A stretch of 12,101 nt of DNA, from NCBI GenBank assembly GCA_964507075.1, contig CAZDOL010000010.1, forward strand, positions 12,095 to 24,195, written 5' to 3'. Positions within the stretch are counted from its first letter, which is position 1. Each line of letters begins with the position of its first letter. Positions 1 through 11,336 of the stretch are shown here, piece after piece. This DNA is from an uncultured Gammaproteobacteria bacterium. GTDB taxonomy: Bacteria > Patescibacteriota > Patescibacteriia > UBA2591 > UBA6264. The notes beneath the pieces were generated by a model. The model saw nothing but the letters and a program-made list of their open reading frames with translations, did no database searches and had not been told where the DNA came from. A program made the translations under genes and the position numbers.

Positions 1-342
1 CCAATTATTTATATATTTTTTAAGCCACTTTTCAAAAATATTAAAATCTGTTTTTATCAACCTATCTTTTATTCCGAAAATCCACTCCGTGGCAATCGTT
101 GCCTCTTCGCTATAATCAGATTTTAAAAGTTGTTCGGATAAGTTAAATATCTCTTTTTTATCAAAATTCTTTATATCCTTAAAGTATTTTTTGGCAATTT
201 TACGAACAATCGGCGTTCTCACTCCATAACAAACAATTTTTTCTTTAAAAAACCTCTTAACAGCGCATTTATATTTCTCATCAACATTAACCTTAAGGTC
301 TTGACGAACATTTTCTATAATTCTTTGCGTCCCAATTTTCAT
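1..342 (-). CDS. DNA alkylation repair protein (AlkD/AlkC-like HEAT-repeat family). N-terminal 114 codons only; the gene runs off the left edge of the window.
   Basis: Missing from the ORF track because no stop lies inside the window. The reverse strand opens with ATG (complement of 340-342) and reads MKIGTQRIIENVRQDLKVNVDEKYKCAVKRFFKEKIVCYGVRTPIVRKIAKKYF...FEKWLKKYINNW, open to base 1 and in frame. The pattern (KYxxxxxRFFKExxxxYGVRTPxxRKIAK, then the acidic/aromatic EEATIATEWIF, then WLKKYINNW) matches my recollection of the N-terminal helices of DNA_alkylation family proteins such as B. cereus AlkD. Confidence 0.65.
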   Translation of the reverse strand, partial: MKIGTQRIIENVRQDLKVNVDEKYKCAVKRFFKEKIVCYGVRTPIVRKIAKKYFKDIKNFDKKEIFNLSEQLLKSDYSEEATIATEWIFGIKDRLIKTDFNIFEKWLKKYINNW

Positions 343-353
343 AATATTTTAAC

Positions 354-455
354 AAAAAATCAACTTTTGGACAAATTTTTGCAAAATCAATTTTTTCGCC
401 TTACAATACAATCCTATAGCACATTTCAGAGGATTAATTCAAGAGGACAGTCCCT
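354..455 (+). repeat. Repeat module A, copy A1 (~102 bp). It ends in a degenerate copy of the GGGGACAGTCCCC palindrome (aGGACAGTCCCt), followed by an extra AGTCCCC half-site at 464-470.
   Basis: Aligns base-for-base with 1951-2053 at roughly 85% identity by eye: aaaaaatca[a/g]cttttgg[a/g]caaatttttgc...caatacaat[c/t]ctatagcacatttc[a/c]gagga...acagtccct. It lies between the AlkD-like start codon (342) and the stop of the membrane-protein gene (480). Confidence 0.85.
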
Positions 456-479
456 ACTCAACAAGTCCCCATTCAAGAA

Positions 480-1196
480 TTATGCGATGTGATTTTTTAA
501 ATCCTTATTTTTAAATTTTGTTACTTTTTTATTACCAGAAACAAAATCATATCCAATTCCCGCTAAACAGCCCCATGAAAAATACCACAATAATTCAGTA
601 GCAGGGATATTACATAGAACAGTTATTCCAAATCTTGTATCAGCAAGTAACCAGTATGTATTCCAATAATCTGGAGAAATCACATTAAAAATAATTGCGT
701 AAATAGGAATGATTATAACCACAACTAACACTCCTGACATGATTGAAGGTATCCACAAATCATTTCTCATAAAAATCATTACTGCTGAAAAGATTATGAA
801 AGCAAGAGAGCTCACCAATATTGAGTTAAATCCTAGCCAGTTATTAAAAATAAATAAACAAGCAACGCCAAGTAAAAACAGAAACCCAAAGAATAGTTTT
901 CTATCTTTTTCTTGTTGAATATTCTTTACGGTAAAAATCGTGTCATATATAGATACTGCAATGCCCGTAATTAAAAATCCAAATAGAAAATCTTCAAATG
1001 AAACCACGGACTGTCCTAACAATAAAGGAGGTCTCCAGTAATCTTTGAAGTACCAAAATTCAGCAATTAAGCCAGCAAAGCCACCCACAATGCTTGCTCT
1101 CATAATTTTTGCTCTCAATTCTTTCTTAAAAAGAAAAATGGTTATCCAAAAAAGCAACAGAAAGACCGAGATTAGTAAATATGAATATTTATCCAT
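480..1196 (-). CDS. Polytopic membrane protein with a lycopene-cyclase-domain (CrtYc/d-like).
   Basis: 238-aa ORF, ATG to TAA. About seven hydrophobic segments. There are two copies of the short acidic motif I associate with lycopene cyclase domains (SFEDFLFGF and IPATELLWYF, i.e. P/SxE(D/E)-hydrophobic). The function in a non-carotenogenic context is unknown. Confidence 0.6.
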   Translation of the reverse strand: MDKYSYLLISVFLLLFWITIFLFKKELRAKIMRASIVGGFAGLIAEFWYFKDYWRPPLLLGQSVVSFEDFLFGFLITGIAVSIYDTIFTVKNIQQEKDRKLFFGFLFLLGVACLFIFNNWLGFNSILVSSLAFIIFSAVMIFMRNDLWIPSIMSGVLVVVIIIPIYAIIFNVISPDYWNTYWLLADTRFGITVLCNIPATELLWYFSWGCLAGIGYDFVSGNKKVTKFKNKDLKNHIA

Positions 1197-1226: not shown

Positions 1227-1310
1227 GGGGACTGTCCCCTTCTTCGTTCACTCTAAAATACTGTCCCAGAACGATTTTCAAGACCAATTTTTTCATTTGG
1301 CAAAAAATGA
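1227..1310 (-). repeat. Repeat module A, copy A3, inverted and diverged. It contains the perfect palindrome GGGGACTGTCCCC (1227-1239) and a second GGGACAG core (complement of 1261-1267).
   Basis: The reverse complement of 1227-1239 is GGGGACAGTCCCC, the same as 2040-2052 and 3300-3312. The distance from the shared TTTTTGCCAAAT block (complement of 1295-1306) to the palindrome is 62 nt, identical to copy A2. The interior has diverged. Confidence 0.6.
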
Positions 1311-1326
1311 ACCAAAATAAACATTT

Positions 1327-1935
1327 TTAAATCATTGTTTGACTTTTGATAAATTCTGGCTGTTTTTCTTCCCAAGAATCAATGTTGCTTTTTACAAAAT
1401 CTACATATTCTTGACGCGCTTGTTCTAAATTCGCAACACCAGTATAAGATAAAAATTTATCTCTATCTATCAAATCATCATCGTATATTCTTTGACTATA
1501 AATTGAAAAACTGCTCCAACGATAATCCTCTGGGATGCTGACTATCTTCGCGCGAACTGCGTTTAAATCAATATAACATCCAACTGTCCAAAAATATTTT
1601 TCCTTATCAATTATGCTACTGTAAAATCTGTCTTGAAAAACATGACCAGAGCGATGATAGCGATGATTAAAATAAATCGCATATAAAAAATTAACTCGTC
1701 CCATAATTTTTGAAAGAGAATCTTGGCGTGTCTCAATAAGTAAATGAAAATGATTCGGCAAAAAATTATAAGAATAGAAATAAAACTGCAATTCTTTTTT
1801 TACTTTTCTAAGAATGCTCAATAATTTTTTGTAATCGCGAACGCTCAAAAAAATCCTTTTCTGATTATTTCCACGACAAACGATATGATAAATCGTTTCG
1901 TTTTGATCAATATATTCACGTGCTTTTCTTGGCAT
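1327..1935 (-). CDS. HUH Y1 transposase of the IS200-like / REP-associated tyrosine transposase (RAYT) type.
   Basis: 202-aa ORF, ATG to TAA. HUH motif at H62-F-H64 (LPNHFHLLIE). GHVFQDRF block. YIDLNAVRAKIV (Y121) followed by YRWSS (138-142), resembling the YIxxNPVRAGLV...YxWSS C-terminal signature of RAYT/TnpA_REP proteins. Flanked by inverted palindromes. Confidence 0.8.
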   Translation of the reverse strand: MPRKAREYIDQNETIYHIVCRGNNQKRIFLSVRDYKKLLSILRKVKKELQFYFYSYNFLPNHFHLLIETRQDSLSKIMGRVNFLYAIYFNHRYHRSGHVFQDRFYSSIIDKEKYFWTVGCYIDLNAVRAKIVSIPEDYRWSSFSIYSQRIYDDDLIDRDKFLSYTGVANLEQARQEYVDFVKSNIDSWEEKQPEFIKSQTMI

Positions 1936-1950
1936 AAAATAAATTTTAAT

Positions 1951-2053
1951 AAAAAATCAGCTTTTGGGCAAATTTTTGCCAAATCCAATTTTTTGCCCTA
2001 CAATACAATTCTATAGCACATTTCCGAGGACTAACTTTAGGGGACAGTCCCCT
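1951..2053 (+). repeat. Repeat module A, copy A2 (~103 bp). It ends in the perfect palindrome GGGGACAGTCCCC (2040-2052).
   Basis: Homologous to 354-455. It contains GGCAAA (1967-1972), which can pair with either TTTGCC at 1975-1980 or TTTGCC at 1992-1997. It starts 15 bp from the transposase start codon (1935). Confidence 0.85.
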
Positions 2054-2083: not shown

Positions 2084-2611
2084 TTATATTTTGTATTTAT
2101 TAATAAATTTAGTTGGCTCTTTCCAATAATTCATCTTAGTTCTTTTGCTTCCTTTCTTCCAATATCCAGGCAGAATTTTTTTCTCCCAGGGGCCAAGATA
2201 AATACTAAAATGTAAATGTTCTTCTTTCCACCAACCGTTTTCTGGAGTGTTGGCTTTACCAACTATACCGACTTGCTGTCCTAACTCAACGCTTTGCCCT
2301 TTTTCGACAAAACGTTTTTGCATATGAGCGTAGAGGGAGAAAAATATTATTTTATTTTTTGGGTGTTTATGGGCAATAACAATTATATTACCCCAATTAC
2401 CTCTTTCTTTTGCTCCAGTGTGCAATGCTGAATAAACTACCTTACCTTTACCGATGCTCATAATTTTTGTGCCAGCAGGACGATTCACATCTTCGCCAAG
2501 GTGAGTGCCCCAATGAATACTTTTGTAAATACAATCTTGCTTAAATTTATAACTATTAACACGGTATTTTTCAAGCGGAAATATTAAATTACGTGTATAT
2601 GGATATGCCAT
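2084..2611 (-). CDS. M23 family zinc metallopeptidase (LytM/lysostaphin-like catalytic domain).
   Basis: 175-aa ORF. HxxxD motif (HLGED), the NIIVIAH...YAHM core and a C-terminal HLH (EEHLHFSIY), in the order typical of Peptidase_M23. Confidence 0.8.
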   Translation of the reverse strand: MAYPYTRNLIFPLEKYRVNSYKFKQDCIYKSIHWGTHLGEDVNRPAGTKIMSIGKGKVVYSALHTGAKERGNWGNIIVIAHKHPKNKIIFFSLYAHMQKRFVEKGQSVELGQQVGIVGKANTPENGWWKEEHLHFSIYLGPWEKKILPGYWKKGSKRTKMNYWKEPTKFINKYKI

Positions 2612-3299: not shown

Positions 3300-3337
3300 G
3301 GGGACAGTCCCCTAAAAAATTAGTCCCCTAAAAAATT
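3300..3337 (+). repeat. Palindrome GGGGACAGTCCCC (3300-3312), overlapping a perfect 16-bp tandem duplication AGTCCCCTAAAAAATT x2 (3306-3321 and 3322-3337).
   Basis: Read directly from the sequence. The duplication ends 1 nt before the valS ATG (3339). Confidence 0.9.
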
Positions 3338-3338
3338 T

Positions 3339-5735
3339 ATGGAAAAAACATACGAAGCAAAACAATTTGAAGAAAAAATCTATAAGCTTTGGAAAGAAAG
3401 CGAATTTTTTAATCCTGATAAATTGCCAGGAAAAAGAAAAGAAAAATATTCTATTACCATTCCCCCGCCAAATATAACGGGGTCTTTGCATATCGGACAC
3501 GCTCTTAATAATACGATTCAAGATATATTAATTAGATATCACCGCATGCTGGGAGACAAAACGCTATGGTTGCCAGGGACAGATCATGCTGGAATTGCTA
3601 CTCAGAATGTAGTAGAAAAAGAATTAAGCAAAAATGGGTTAACACGTCATCAATTAGGAAGAGAAAATTTTGTTAAAACTGTCTGGCAATGGAAAGAAAA
3701 ATATGGCAATTTAATTATCAAACAATTAGAAAAATTGGGGTGTTCTTGTGATTGGTCCAGATTACGATTCACCTTAGATGAGAAATACAAAGAAGCTGTC
3801 TTAACTGCTTTTACTAATTATCACAAAAAAGGATACATCTATCGTGGTCCCAGAATTGTAAATTGGTGTCCAAGATGTGAAACTGCCATCTCTGACATTG
3901 AAATCAAATATAAAGAAAGCATAGGTAAATTATGGTACATAAAATACCCTCTATCCAAAAATCCGAAATCCGAAACCCTAAATTCTAAACAAATTCAAAA
4001 TTCCAAACCTAAAATTCCAAACTTTATAGTTGTTGCTACCACTCGCCCAGAAACAATGTTGGGTGACACGGCGATAGCAGTTAACCCTAAAGACAAAAAA
4101 TACAAAGATTTTATAGGACAAAAAGTGATAATTCCTGTTGTTCAAAGGGAAATTCCTATTGTAGCTCATCATTTAGTTAAAATGGAATTTGGAACTGGCG
4201 CCGTAAAAATTACTCCTGCTCATGACAAAACTGATTGGCAAATCGGCAAAGCCAATAATCTACCAATTATTAATGTAATCGGCCCCAAGGGAAAAATGAC
4301 AGCAGAAGCTGGCAAATATGCTAATCTTTCTACAAAAGAAGCCAGAAAACAAATCATAATTGAATTAGAAAAACTAAATCTCTTAGAAAAAACCGAAAAT
4401 CACGAACACCAGGTTTCTCTTTGCGACCGTTGTGGCACCCCAATTGAACCTCAAATTTCTACCCAATGGTTTGTGAAAATGAAAGAGTTAGCAAAACCAG
4501 CCATAACCAGCGTCAAAAATGATAAAATCAAAATTATTCCCAAGCGATACAAAAAAGTCTATTTGGATTGGATGAATAATTTAGAAGATTGGTGTATTTC
4601 CCGACAACTTTGGTGGGGACATCAGCTTCCTGTTTGGTTTTGCGAAAACCAAAAAGACAAATTTATTGTTTCTATTACTCCACCCCCTTCTTGTCCCTAT
4701 TGCAAAAAATGCCAAATGAAACAATCCTCAGATGTTTTGGATACCTGGTTTTCGTCAGCCCTTTGGCCCTTTGCTACATTGGGTTGGCCTGAAAAAACCA
4801 AAGACCTGAAAGAATATTATCCTACCTCCATACTTTCCACAGCCAGAGACATCTTATATCTTTGGGTAGCCAGAATGGTATTCTCGGGATTTGAATTTAT
4901 GGGGAAAATACCCTTCCAAACTGTCTATATTCACGGAACCATTCTTACTTTAGAAGGAAAAAGAATGAGCAAATCCCTAGGAACTGGAGTTAATCCCTTA
5001 GGGTTTATGGACCAATATGGTGCAGACGCGACCCGTTTAGGAATTATACTTCAATCCAATAGAGACCAGCAAGAAATTCGTTTTGATTCTCGTGCCATTC
5101 TAGCAGCCCGCAATTTCATTAACAAGCTTTGGAACATTTCTAGATTTGTAAAACTTATAAATCAAGAAATTCCAAGGACAGAAATGAAAAAGCCAACCGT
5201 TGCTGACCAATGGATACTCTCTAAGATAAATAATCTTATTAATTCCGTTACCCAAAAAATCAAAAACAATGAATTAAGTTTAGCAGCTAAAGAGCTTTAT
5301 GAATTTGTTTGGCATGATTTTGCTGATTGGTATTTAGAAATAGCAAAATTCCAGAAAGACAATTTAAAAACAAAAAAACAAACCTCTGGTCTGCTCAGAA
5401 TGATTTTAGAAAAATGCCTTAAAATGCTCCACCCCTTTATTCCTTTTGTTACGGAAACGATTAATATTCAATTAAATAAAATAGGGGACAAAGAATTCTC
5501 TGATTTACTAATTGTAGCTGAATGGCCTCAAACCGATAAAAAAATGATTAATTCTCAAATTGAAAAAGAATTTGAAAAAATTAAAAACTTGGTTACAGAA
5601 ATAAGAAACTGGCGAAAAAAAGAAAAAATAGAGCCTCGAGAAATTATTATCTTGCCAAATATATTTAAAAATAAACTCCTAAAATTCAAACCAGAATATC
5701 AAAAAATCATCAAGCAATTATCTAAAATTAAGTAA
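3339..5735 (+). CDS. valS: Valine--tRNA ligase.
   Basis: 798-aa ORF. HIGH motif (SLHIGHALN), TTRPETMLGDTAIAVNP, DTWFSSALWPF, and KMSKS-type RMSKS. It is shorter than E. coli-type ValRS at the C-terminus. Confidence 0.95.
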   Translation: MEKTYEAKQFEEKIYKLWKESEFFNPDKLPGKRKEKYSITIPPPNITGSLHIGHALNNTIQDILIRYHRMLGDKTLWLPGTDHAGIATQNVVEKELSKNGLTRHQLGRENFVKTVWQWKEKYGNLIIKQLEKLGCSCDWSRLRFTLDEKYKEAVLTAFTNYHKKGYIYRGPRIVNWCPRCETAISDIEIKYKESIGKLWYIKYPLSKNPKSETLNSKQIQNSKPKIPNFIVVATTRPETMLGDTAIAVNPKDKKYKDFIGQKVIIPVVQREIPIVAHHLVKMEFGTGAVKITPAHDKTDWQIGKANNLPIINVIGPKGKMTAEAGKYANLSTKEARKQIIIELEKLNLLEKTENHEHQVSLCDRCGTPIEPQISTQWFVKMKELAKPAITSVKNDKIKIIPKRYKKVYLDWMNNLEDWCISRQLWWGHQLPVWFCENQKDKFIVSITPPPSCPYCKKCQMKQSSDVLDTWFSSALWPFATLGWPEKTKDLKEYYPTSILSTARDILYLWVARMVFSGFEFMGKIPFQTVYIHGTILTLEGKRMSKSLGTGVNPLGFMDQYGADATRLGIILQSNRDQQEIRFDSRAILAARNFINKLWNISRFVKLINQEIPRTEMKKPTVADQWILSKINNLINSVTQKIKNNELSLAAKELYEFVWHDFADWYLEIAKFQKDNLKTKKQTSGLLRMILEKCLKMLHPFIPFVTETINIQLNKIGDKEFSDLLIVAEWPQTDKKMINSQIEKEFEKIKNLVTEIRNWRKKEKIEPREIIILPNIFKNKLLKFKPEYQKIIKQLSKIK

Positions 5736-5740
5736 AAAAT

Positions 5741-5912
5741 AAGAACCCTTCGCTTCGCTCAGGAACCTTGTTATTCGCTTTTCCCCGCTAAGCGGGGCTT
5801 CGCTCATAATAAAAAAACAGCTAAAAATACTAAAATTAGCTGTTTTGTTTTTGTGTCATTATGAGCGAAGCGAATAACAAGGTTCTGACGAGCAGAGCGA
5901 GGAATGGTTCTT
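5741..5912. repeat. Nested imperfect inverted repeat filling the valS/pilB convergent intergenic gap.
   Basis: Perfect arm pairs: CTTCGCTCATAAT (5798-5810) with ATTATGAGCGAAG (5858-5870), and GAACCTTGTTATTCG (5763-5777) with CGAATAACAAGGTTC (5871-5885). The outer arms AAGAACC (5741-5747) and GGTTCTT (5906-5912) pair imperfectly in between. The left arm alone carries an extra GC hairpin, CCCCGC-TAA-GCGGGG (5783-5797). Confidence 0.85.
5811..5852. terminator. Bidirectional intrinsic terminator shared by valS and pilB.
   Basis: The stem AAAACAGCTAA (5814-5824) pairs with TTAGCTGTTTT (5836-5846) around an 11-nt loop. It is preceded by an A7 run and followed by TTTTGTTTTT, so a hairpin plus U-tract is produced on both strands, between convergent stop codons. 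Confidence 0.7.
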
Positions 5913-7625: not shown

Positions 7626-8492
7626 TTAATTTTCAAGAATTAACCTGGCTTCTTTTATTAATTTATCTAACTTGTCTTTAGTAATCCCCGTTCTAATGCT
7701 TAATTTTTCTATTCCTTGAGACAGAAGTTGACTGGCCAGAATAACATTTTGCGAGAATAATCTCTCGGTTGAAATCTTATCTAAATGTTTTAAAATGGTA
7801 ACTGGGTAAAATTTTTTGTTCTCTATTAAACGATTAAGGCTTTTGTCTGTGGGATATTGCCAGCCCAATAGTTTAATATTTCTGCAGCTAGCGTATTGAA
7901 TGGCTGATTTAGAAAATTTTGTGTTTGATATTAACCAAGGGCGACTAAACCCTTTTTCTTTAAGGTCATCAAATCTGGCCCAAAGACAAAGAGCGTCCTT
8001 AAGGTCAGTTTTGATCCCAGGAGCATTGTGATACTTGCATTCTATTAAATACTTTTCTTTTTCTTGTTGTTTGCTGGATGTTATGGTAGCTACGGCATCC
8101 ACTTCGTGACTAACGCAACGCCCCATCAAAATAGGAGGACAATGAGCTTGATAATCATAAACCTTTAAAAGAAGGACAATAAATTTTTCAAAAATAAATC
8201 CACTAGGACCTAAGCCGAGCATAGCCTCTTTTAGGGCATAACGAGCCGAAGTTAATGGACTTAATTTTTCCAACAAGTTCAAAATTAAACGCAATATTTT
8301 TCTGGTAGACATTCCATCTCTGACTTGAGCCGAAACTAAACTCTCAATCTTCAAAGCTAATTTCCTGTCAGCTCCTGCCCGTAAACATGTTCTTCTAATT
8401 TTAAGAGAATTAAATTTAGCCTTTTGACCCGAGGCCTTAACTACATACATAAGCGCTTCGCTTAAATTTATTATTTTTTGCTTCAAGTCCAA
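7626..8492 (-). CDS. ATP-cone domain fused to an Mrr-like PD-(D/E)xK nuclease domain.
   Basis: 288-aa ORF. The N-terminal ~90 aa (VVKASGQKAKFNSLKIRRTCLRAG...STRKIL) look like an ATP-cone. The core has D132 (HEVDAVA) and E151-x-K153 (YLIECKYH), as in Mrr_cat restriction-endonuclease folds. The C-terminus is helical. The start at 8492 is TTG; an ATG at 8450 (MYVVKASG...) is an equally plausible start. The stop lies 14 bp upstream of the pilB start. Confidence 0.7.
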   Translation of the reverse strand: MDLKQKIINLSEALMYVVKASGQKAKFNSLKIRRTCLRAGADRKLALKIESLVSAQVRDGMSTRKILRLILNLLEKLSPLTSARYALKEAMLGLGPSGFIFEKFIVLLLKVYDYQAHCPPILMGRCVSHEVDAVATITSSKQQEKEKYLIECKYHNAPGIKTDLKDALCLWARFDDLKEKGFSRPWLISNTKFSKSAIQYASCRNIKLLGWQYPTDKSLNRLIENKKFYPVTILKHLDKISTERLFSQNVILASQLLSQGIEKLSIRTGITKDKLDKLIKEARLILEN

Positions 8493-8535: not shown

Positions 8536-8591
8536 ACCCTGTTAAATAAAATCTTCGATTTTAATTTGCTTTGCAAATTATTTAACAGGGT
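8536..8591 (+). repeat. Repeat family B, copy B1: a 56-nt hairpin element.
   Basis: ACCCTGTTAAATAA (8536-8549) pairs perfectly with TTATTTAACAGGGT (8578-8591). An inner TTTGC/GCAAA stem surrounds TTT. It is 54/56 identical to 11218-11273, and looser homology extends to about 8515-8645. Confidence 0.9.
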
Positions 8592-8647
8592 AACGATTTT
8601 GTTACTAAAATTTATTCGCTAAACGCTCCAAATTTTAGGCAAAATCA

Positions 8648-11217: not shown

Positions 11218-11273
11218 ACCCTGTTAAATAAAATCTACGATTTTAATTTGCTTCGCAAATTATTTAACAGGGT
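11218..11273 (+). repeat. Repeat family B, copy B2: a 56-nt hairpin element.
   Basis: Identical to 8536-8591 except T>A at 11237 (an unpaired bulge) and T>C at 11254 (the apical loop). Both stems are fully conserved. Flanking homology extends to about 11205-11333. Confidence 0.9.
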
Positions 11274-11336
11274 ACTCAAATTTATAACGAAATTTTCTTC
11301 GTTACTTCGTAACTCGTAAATTTAGACAAATTTGGT

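Follow-up and report, generated by a model that had tools for sequence, protein, structure and literature searches.

What kind of element is formed by a transposase-like gene that sits between inverted copies of a short palindrome in an AT-rich, streamlined genome? The question is raised by a 12,101-nt stretch of Patescibacteria DNA (33% G+C; hereafter the window), in which a 202-aa HUH/Y1 protein is encoded between copies of the 13-bp palindrome GGGGAC-W-GTCCCC. The initial annotation took the locus for the arrangement formed by repetitive extragenic palindromes (REPs) and REP-associated tyrosine transposases (RAYTs). We consider it probable that the locus is instead a TIRtron, that is, a long-resident, single-copy, domesticated HUH/Y1 gene (a TIRYT, subclass 2.1 and Group 1-like) lying within terminal inverted repeats (TIRs) of ~100 nt, which end in the palindrome as the predicted cognate site of the protein. 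The loci used for comparison (L-numbers) came from one genome per species plus metagenome contigs, with L001 representing the window's species.

The window was searched for exact and one-mismatch copies of the 13-mer, which was written as the degenerate pattern GGGGACWGTCCCC. Matches to GGGGACWGTCCCC started at 1227, 2040 and 3300. The copy at 1227-1239 read GGGGACTGTCCCC, those at 2040-2052 and 3300-3312 both read GGGGACAGTCCCC, and a degenerate palindrome, GAGGACAGTCCCT, was located at 443-455, close to the 444-455 given initially. Half-sites were found at 465-470, 1263-1267 and 3323-3328, and short units were duplicated in tandem next to two of the copies, namely the 16-nt unit GTCCCCTAAAAAATTW at 3307-3338 and a half-site unit at 456-479; both duplications had gone unnoticed initially. 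The chance expectation for the 13-mer was a mean of 0.01 matches, and none of 200 dinucleotide shuffles contained three. No further copy was found in the window with one mismatch allowed, nor with up to two mismatches in a contiguous 31-kb stretch of DNA of this species, so that all four copies fall within 2.9 kb around the Y1 gene; all of them are intergenic. The three 13-mers and the half-sites therefore lie where the initial annotation had put them. Its statements that the palindromes are inverted repeats bracketing the Y1 gene, that extra copies exist and that no full copy occurs in the remainder of the window were likewise borne out.

The repeated sequence extends beyond the 13-mer. The 109-nt stretches 346-454 and 1943-2051 are 86% identical, and the former runs up to the start codon of another, alkD-like gene, a position that had likewise escaped notice. 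The ~100-nt module mentioned earlier is thus real, but it had been overlooked that the repeats flanking the Y1 gene have this extent too: the gene is enclosed by a 117-nt and a 100-nt inverted repeat, with an alignment z-score of 3.7 in this genome and up to 8.8 in others. From the outside in, each flank consists of the palindrome, a variable and often hairpin-forming region and an inner motif (ATTTGGCAnnATTTTGAT-like), which is ~25-45 nt away from the coding sequence. Two candidate roles for the inner motif were rejected. As a palindrome or hairpin in general it was significant only in L017, L018 and L031, and upon inspection of TGGCACGATTTTGAT as a sigma-54 promoter the spacing was one base short and the GC element was missing. 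The coordinates of the features are collected in Table 1.

Table 1. Features of the Y1 locus and its surroundings (window coordinates; a dot marks features without strand)
Feature	Position	Strand	Remarks
HUH/Y1 (TIRYT/RAYT-like) gene, 202 aa	1327..1935	-	HUH H62-F-H64, catalytic Tyr Y121; PF01797
Outer end of upstream TIR, 13-bp palindrome	2040..2052	.	reads GGGGACTGTCCCC on gene strand
Body of upstream TIR module	1936..2039	-	variable hairpin region; inner motif ATTTGGCAAAAATTTGCCC at 1966-1984; sigma-70-like match
Outer end of downstream TIR, 13-bp palindrome	1227..1239	.	centre base complementary to upstream one
Body of downstream TIR, mirror of upstream module	1240..1326	-	inner motif 1294-1309
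Solo copy of upstream module, degenerate palindrome 443-455	340..455	-	ends at alkD-like ATG; 83.9% identity over full length
Tandem duplication of flank + outer half-site, ttcttgaatgGGGGAC / ttgttgagtaGGGAC (gene strand)	456..479	-	half-site 465-470
Solo palindrome 3300-3312 with tandem GTCCCCTAAAAAATTW pair (3307-3322, 3323-3338)	3300..3338	+	abuts valS ATG at 3339
alkD-like DNA alkylation repair gene, 5' part	1..339	-	PF08713, 73.4 bits; preceded by solo module; full gene in L001
Lycopene_cyc-like membrane protein gene, bounded by GTCCCC ... GGGGAC	480..1196	-	behaves as movable unit
M23 peptidase gene	2084..2611	-	lineage-specific; 3' end 31 nt from outer side of upstream palindrome

Profile score, motifs and modelled fold all place the protein in the HUH/Y1_Tnp superfamily. 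The hidden Markov model (HMM) of Pfam family Y1_Tnp (PF01797), the search of which had been proposed as a check, matched with 53.8 bits against a cut-off of 23. The sequence contains NHFH, FQ, Y121 within YIDLNAV and an RWSS tail, in agreement with the HFH motif, candidate catalytic tyrosine and tail named in the initial annotation. The assignment to the RAYT/TnpA_REP kind rather than to a compact IS200 TnpA also held: NCBIfam REP_Tyr_transpos (NF047646) scored 68.7 bits, which is under its curated cut-off of 80, and NCBIfam IS200 (NF033573) scored 21.9 bits against a cut-off of 55. Escherichia coli TnpA_REP (4ER8) was the only meaningful sequence match in the PDB; its HUH motif and tyrosine align, Y121 falling onto the tyrosine of YIYINPV. 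For an AlphaFold model built from 29 homologues (pLDDT 87.4), the best Foldseek match was again this structure (4er8_A, TnpA_REP with a REP hairpin; E=5e-8), and the transposases of IS608 and ISDra2 (2a6o, 2xm3) ranked next. A Pfam scan of the protein revealed no helix-turn-helix (HTH) domain. Homologues formed more than 1,600 protein clusters, and among the matches listed those with an organism name were Patescibacteria. The best 120 homologues of these clusters were mostly ~200 aa long and aligned over most of the query. NH-x-H was present in 118/118 homologues, H62 and H64 being invariant, and the Tyr motif in 113/118, with Y121 itself conserved in at least 90% of the sequences. One homologue, P0028 (59% identical, from a 28.8-kb NCBI contig), has a histidine in the Y121 column, which could reflect a sequencing variant or loss of activity in this copy.

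Comparison across genomes linked the palindrome to the gene. The Patescibacteria Y1 proteins compared are 45-85% identical to that of the window; both palindromes were present at 21 of their 26 loci and the upstream one at 22. The upstream palindrome starts 93-134 nt ahead of the ATG, and the downstream one terminates 81-129 nt past the stop codon. The centre was A or T in 78/78 perfect palindromes, and the centre bases of the two ends were complementary in 21/21 loci having both. Four arm variants were observed, always covarying: GGGGAC/GTCCCC, GGGGTC/GACCCC, GGTGAC/GTCACC and GGTGCC/GGCACC. Two metagenome-assembled genomes (MAGs) contain two paralogues, and the paralogues of one MAG are each only 55-58% identical to the window protein. 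In STA_78, one paralogue (L017) has the GGGGAC type only and the other (L015) the GGGGTC type only, the latter with five GGGGTCTGACCCC copies plus a triple degenerate array within 19 kb; in KR13_N2.mb.83 the paralogues L010 and L031 also differ in palindrome type. Each paralogue is paired with its own palindrome type, and the two MAGs represent natural specificity pairs. Outside the Patescibacteria, GGGGTCAGACCCC is located ~100 nt upstream of homologues in Gaiellales (Actinomycetota) and was found downstream only in Firmicutes homologues and at one Solirubrobacteraceae locus. Homologues of Betaproteobacteria and Holophagales have an upstream GGGGTCAGG, which is not palindromic. The architecture is conserved across the Patescibacteria and into Actinomycetota and Firmicutes. 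With this distribution and the number of homologous clusters, the initial impression that such a system is unusual for an AT-rich streamlined genome does not hold.

The Y1 gene behaves as a resident of its genome. It stays beside tsaE, downstream of dnaA-mrr-pilB-valS, in L011 (70% identity to the window protein), L017 (55%), L210 (83%) and L211 (85%), and the housekeeping proteins of genomes sharing this position are 55-92% identical. Compared with L210, the ratio of nonsynonymous to synonymous substitution rates (dN/dS) was 0.147 at a dS of 0.62, within the range of nine neighbouring genes (dN/dS 0.05-0.27, dS 0.54-1.16). All 22 contigs carrying the exact Y1 protein have one arrangement. The single-copy, vertically inherited behaviour anticipated for a RAYT was thus found, and on the contigs examined the gene follows the description of Bertels et al. 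(2017): about one copy, vertical transmission and housekeeping-like evolution.

These data bear on whether the locus is an ordinary active insertion sequence (IS) of the IS200/IS605 type, ~826 bp long, with the palindromes as end hairpins. Such an element would share the Y1 HUH fold (as in IS608 and ISDra2), and its end structures would be expected to be recognised on single-stranded DNA. The combination of a compact gene with structured ends is compatible with this, as are the two MAGs with two copies and a blastn homology block that coincides with the unit (L001 9882-10718, L210 9882-10721). We nevertheless regard it as very improbable. The gene is not mobile and multi-copy but occupies a fixed chromosomal position in a single context and has a neighbour-like dS, and the same-MAG paralogues are both distant from the window protein and differ in palindrome type. 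The ends are inverted, unlike the same-strand, subterminal left- and right-end hairpins of these IS. The tyrosine motif, Y-I-D-L-N, is of the Y-x-x-x-N kind (class 2) and not Y-x-x-x-Q, the protein is longer than a compact TnpA of ~150 aa and has a conserved C-terminal extension, and the IS200 profile score remained far from its cut-off.

A known arrangement does fit. TIRtrons were described by Di Nocera, De Gregorio and Rocco (2013; PMC3733652) as RAYT-like genes, the TIRYTs, with TIRs at similar distances on both sides; many of the TIRs share GGGGWSAS, some are self-complementary and some form small repeat families. Most TIRYTs belong to TnpA_Y1 subclass 2.1, equivalent to Group 1 of Bertels, which is characterised by the motifs NHVH/NH[YF]H, W[EQ]/FQ and YIELNP/Y[IV]HLNP together with an SS tail; its members have a C-terminal HTH-like domain and a median length of 238 aa, and REPs are not associated (Quentin et al. 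2018, PMC6006769). RAYT Group 1 is the largest and most widely distributed group, with flanking 16-mers that are only modestly repeated (Bertels et al. 2017, PMC5581495), and both subclass 2.1 and Group 1 have been reported without a link to abundant repeats (PMC6006769, PMC5581495). The present locus combines a RAYT-like Y1 gene of low copy number with TIRs at fixed distance (117 and 100 nt here, at both ends in 21/26 Patescibacteria loci), and its TIR sometimes recurs as a small repeat family. Read inward, GGGGACAG fits GGGGWSAS exactly at most loci, the window's clade having a T in the centre (GGGGACTG), and a GGGGWSAS-type motif was also found at Actinomycetota, Firmicutes and Betaproteobacteria homologues. 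Taken as a sequence pattern, GGGGAC-W-GTCCCC is a form of the GGGGWSAS family motif. The NH[YF]H, FQ, Y-x-x-LN and SS motifs are shared; in a comparison with the published subclass 2.1 motifs (not the authors' HMMs), NHFH, FQ and RWSS were present and YIDLNA was close but not identical.

Several properties differ from the TIRtrons published in these three papers: the Patescibacteria host, the 13-bp terminus that is perfectly palindromic around a W and whose arms covary, the conserved modules of ~100 nt with an inner TTTGGCA motif, the outer tandem half-site arrays, the copies at gene-content breakpoints, and a protein of ~200 aa (median 238) without a recognised HTH tail. Patescibacteria are unmentioned in PMC3733652, PMC6006769 and PMC5581495, a full-text literature search for RAYT and Patescibacteria returned nothing relevant, and one for the 13-mers gave a single, unrelated match, an antisense-oligonucleotide paper. 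Judged by its sequence, the locus is a TIRtron, a new member of a known and poorly understood kind that is common in Patescibacteria.

The canonical REP-RAYT system proposed in the initial annotation would require the 13-mer or the ~100-nt module to be a genome-wide REP/REPIN population multiplied by a single-copy RAYT. Solo copies are indeed present at 3300 and 443 and in other genomes, where solo palindromes lie 0.4-7.5 kb from Y1 and their density around Y1 genes is roughly one in 16 kb. When metagenomes were scanned for GGGGACAGTCCCCA, 120 loci were obtained, a single one of them with a Y1 homologue close by. Most of the loci were GC-rich, often with paired or arrayed copies, and ~20 were low in GC and included typical modules beside unrelated genes (L107, L204, L178, L095). 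As the plain 14-mer scan returned mostly GC-rich contigs, it does not provide a per-genome count. Use of the 13-mer motif as a repeat unit is thus widespread. Dense arrays of the same 13-mer were observed in the GC-rich contigs L106 (1496-3757), L133 (7599-7781), L100 and L136, with nine copies in L106, six of them spaced 17 nt, and in many GC-rich contigs inverted pairs with A/T centres are separated by 20-50 nt. Near the arrays of these four contigs, no Y1 homologue was detectable.

The RAYT-like protein and the low-GC solo modules would suit a REP-RAYT system, and the REPtron of E. coli TnpA_REP (4ER8; PMC8266576) is alike in several respects: it has the closest solved fold and the same HUH/Tyr chemistry, a single-copy vertical gene bracketed by inverted cognate palindromes, and paralogues with their own element types. 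However, no hairpin tagged with GTAG or GT[AG]G was found, and the locus thus lacks the guide tetranucleotide at the hairpin foot. Its hairpin is much shorter and weaker, its flanks are long TIRs, and the score of 68.7 bits is under the NCBIfam equivalog cut-off of 80. In the window's species the copies, four in all, are confined to 2.9 kb of the 31 kb examined, L011 and L021 have just the two flanking copies in 20 kb, and subclass 2.1/Group 1 is not tied to abundant repeats (PMC6006769, PMC5581495). A canonical REP-RAYT system is therefore unlikely, and what had been read as one corresponds to the published TIRtron/TIRYT variant.

The modules themselves are conserved. Between genomes the non-coding modules are 84-89% identical, whereas synonymous sites are ~50% identical and other intergenic spacers are unalignable, which argues that the modules are under constraint; the downstream TIR body was kept in L210 and L211. 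Judging from these substitution patterns, the Y1 gene and the repeats are under purifying selection. The layout of a module running up to alkD is also present in L211, where that module is 94% identical to the Y1 module of the same genome, a clear case of within-genome homogenisation. No such homogenisation was seen in the window's species, the 83.9% identity being no higher than between genomes. A sigma-70-like sequence, TTGCCC-17-TAAAAT, is located at 1971 to 1943, its -10 hexamer ending 7 nt before the Y1 ATG. Both module copies (1943-1971 and 346-374, minus strand) contain TTGYCC-17-TAAAAT, the -10 element of which is separated from the ATG by 7 nt for Y1 and by 3 nt for alkD; there is no Shine-Dalgarno sequence. 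If the promoter is real, the transcripts would be leaderless or nearly so.

A regulatory role at the DNA or RNA level was also considered. As in the alternative reading of the initial annotation, a dimeric DNA-binding protein, possibly Y1 itself, would use the palindrome as its operator, while the module would act as a portable promoter or leader and recombination would be incidental. The perfect two-fold symmetry with arms that change together, the conservation of the module far beyond neutral sites and the position of the sigma-70-like sequence right before the ATG are in line with this, as is the finding that 7 of ~9 solo modules face the 5' end of a gene. Furthermore, several upstream modules fold far better on the sense strand, as in L024 (-22.8 versus -5.8 kcal/mol for the complement). 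This asymmetry is large in some upstream modules only and was inconsistent overall (23/37), the count of 7/9 is not significant, and an Rfam scan of the window gave no match at the modules. The mirror module after the stop codon cannot serve as Y1 promoter there, and the module-less palindrome at 3300, the solo copies, the half-site arrays and the homology breaks would be left unexplained. We regard a purely regulatory element as a minor possibility. Still less can be said for intrinsic terminators or mRNA-stabilising hairpins between co-directional genes, which we consider extremely improbable. The copies are all intergenic and a scan flagged 1227 and 3312 as terminator-like, but this terminator-like count (3) was not above that in shuffles (2.1), the structure has a 5-bp stem, a 3-nt loop and -3.3 kcal/mol without a consistent T-run, and one copy is held upstream of the gene at a fixed ~100 nt across phyla.

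The region between tsaE and alkD/POR is hypervariable, with a gene content that varies even among close relatives. The gene order is M23, Y1, Lyc_cyc-like, alkD in the window; PALP, lactamase_B, Lyc_cyc-like, a fragment, Y1, orf90, orf94, CNNM, alkD in L210; Y1, orf138, alkD in L211; and Y1 only in L011. The blastn blocks between relatives end within 16 nt of palindromes (<=16 nt). The block with the Lyc gene (L001 10725-11471) matches L210 8946-9692, on the other side of Y1, so that the order of Y1 unit and Lyc gene is reversed between the two genomes. One slot is occupied by different genes in L001 and L211. The Lyc gene (window 480-1196; L210 8961-9677) had a dS of 0.29 [0.20-0.41], compared with 0.54-1.16 for the nine neighbours, which suggests that its two copies diverged more recently. 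In L210, a fragment of a symporter-like gene ends at a palindrome. The M23 gene is absent at this place from L210, L211 and L011, the homology ending at the palindrome. In the valS-tsaE spacer of L011, which is only 4 nt long, there is no palindrome, and the solo palindrome at 3300 is orthologous in L210 with the centre base flipped. Overall, a palindrome, a degenerate copy or a half-site is found at most of the junctions between variable genes and is missing from most of the conserved ones. Related genomes diverge in gene content and order at points marked by palindrome copies or half-sites, and this association with breakpoints is the part that may be new. The 329-aa open reading frame of L010 was tried as a counterpart of the L210 CNNM gene and rejected, as tblastn gave no hit.

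The half-sites follow a pattern as well. At Patescibacteria-like loci an extra half-site of the same arm was found within 45 nt of 21 out of 66 palindromes (expected, ~0.01 per side). The arrays are tandem duplications of flanking sequence plus the outer half-site, in units of 12-18 nt. Wherever the orientation is fixed by a module, the arrays are on the outer side of the palindrome. At 456-479 there are two units in the window and one in L210. In L023 (7508) and L025 (142), a solo palindrome with its module precedes an orthologous nitroreductase-like gene; this shared placement in two genomes indicates that some solo modules are old and have kept their position.

If it acts as TnpA_REP and IS608 TnpA do (4ER8, 2VJV; PMC8266576), the Y1 protein of the TIRtron would recognise the palindrome and nick and rejoin DNA at or beside it, probably on transiently single-stranded DNA, where the palindrome can fold into a stem of 5 bp and a CWG loop. 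Strands transferred now and then from one copy to another would keep the two ends matched and leave behind solo palindromes or modules and the outer-side tandem duplications of flank plus half-site. Cutting at or near the centre would yield units bounded by GTCCCC...GGGGAC, which could be excised and re-inserted at another palindrome. Since re-insertion would rebuild a palindrome on each side, this would fit the junctions seen.

A farther-reaching version is that the Y1 protein and the palindromes constitute a platform for site-specific gene shuffling and capture, an HUH-nuclease analogue of the integron in which single-stranded DNA would be cut at the palindrome centre. Segments of one or a few genes would be excised and re-inserted at palindromes, with the half-site arrays as scars, and this would account for the hypervariable island from tsaE to alkD/POR beside the replication origin. 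The functional analogy to integron attC arrays lies in co-oriented genes separated by short palindromic sites, in gene content and order that vary between relatives with breakpoints at the sites, and in one gene with a separate history, as seen from its lower dS. Unlike in an integron, there is no IntI tyrosine recombinase, attI or Pc, an HUH nuclease takes the place of the candidate enzyme, some junctions have no site, and no circular cassette or insertion event was seen; the Pfam lists for the 31 kb contain no integrase-family gene. We can put this platform forward only tentatively, and rather doubt it.

A number of points weigh against the TIRtron reading or against the enzymatic part of it. 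The protein is shorter than the subclass 2.1 median (202 versus 238 aa), and its apparent membership was judged from published motifs instead of the authors' HMMs. We infer the action of Y1 on the palindrome from relatives, hence by analogy, and the literature examined (PMC3733652, PMC6006769, PMC5581495) contains no biochemically characterised member of Group 1, subclass 2.1 or the TIRYTs. The hairpin that the 13-mer would form in single-stranded DNA is weak (-3.3 kcal/mol), and the covariation and symmetry of the arms are equally expected for a dimer binding double-stranded DNA. The tsaE|M23, alkD|POR and CNNM|alkD junctions are without any palindrome. Breakpoints at the repeats could stem from homologous recombination between the ~100-nt modules or from replication slippage, independently of Y1. 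Finally, no population-level rearrangements were found when they were sought by exact-protein look-ups of Y1 and the Lyc gene.

Some further features were noted in the neighbourhood. The gene at 7626-8492, between the pilB-like gene and dnaA, has a weak ATP-cone match together with Mrr_cat and an AF1548-like C-terminal domain, and it keeps its dnaA-adjacent position in L011, L017 and L210. A second repeat, unrelated to the palindrome, has a 57-nt core at 8536-8592 and 11218-11274 (with flanks to 8613 and 11295, respectively; 96.5% identity), which folds as a Y-shaped hairpin of -18.8 kcal/mol and occupies the spacers between dnaA and mrr and between nusB and rnc. L219 has part of a third copy at ~19510-19583, and the repeat is absent from the orthologous dnaA-mrr spacer of L210. 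The convergent valS and pilB-like genes are separated by a 75-nt hairpin at 5797-5871 (-29.8 kcal/mol, with an outer stem of 14 bp). Parts of this hairpin recur twice in L210, once after tsaD and there in opposite orientation, which suggests a third small repeat family.

RAYT-like Y1 proteins are present in about a quarter of bacterial species, and Group 1 (subclass 2.1, TIRYT) is the largest group of them. For this group the Patescibacteria loci offer a well-defined candidate substrate, a 13-bp palindrome in four covarying variants, each with its own protein and sometimes with two such pairs in one genome. Specificity-swap experiments would therefore be easy to design. If the breakpoints do not result from the enzyme, the locus would be an ordinary new instance of a published arrangement. 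If they reflect its action, the Y1 protein and its palindromes would provide a mechanism by which gene content turns over in genomes that are ultra-small and streamlined and have few conventional mobile elements.

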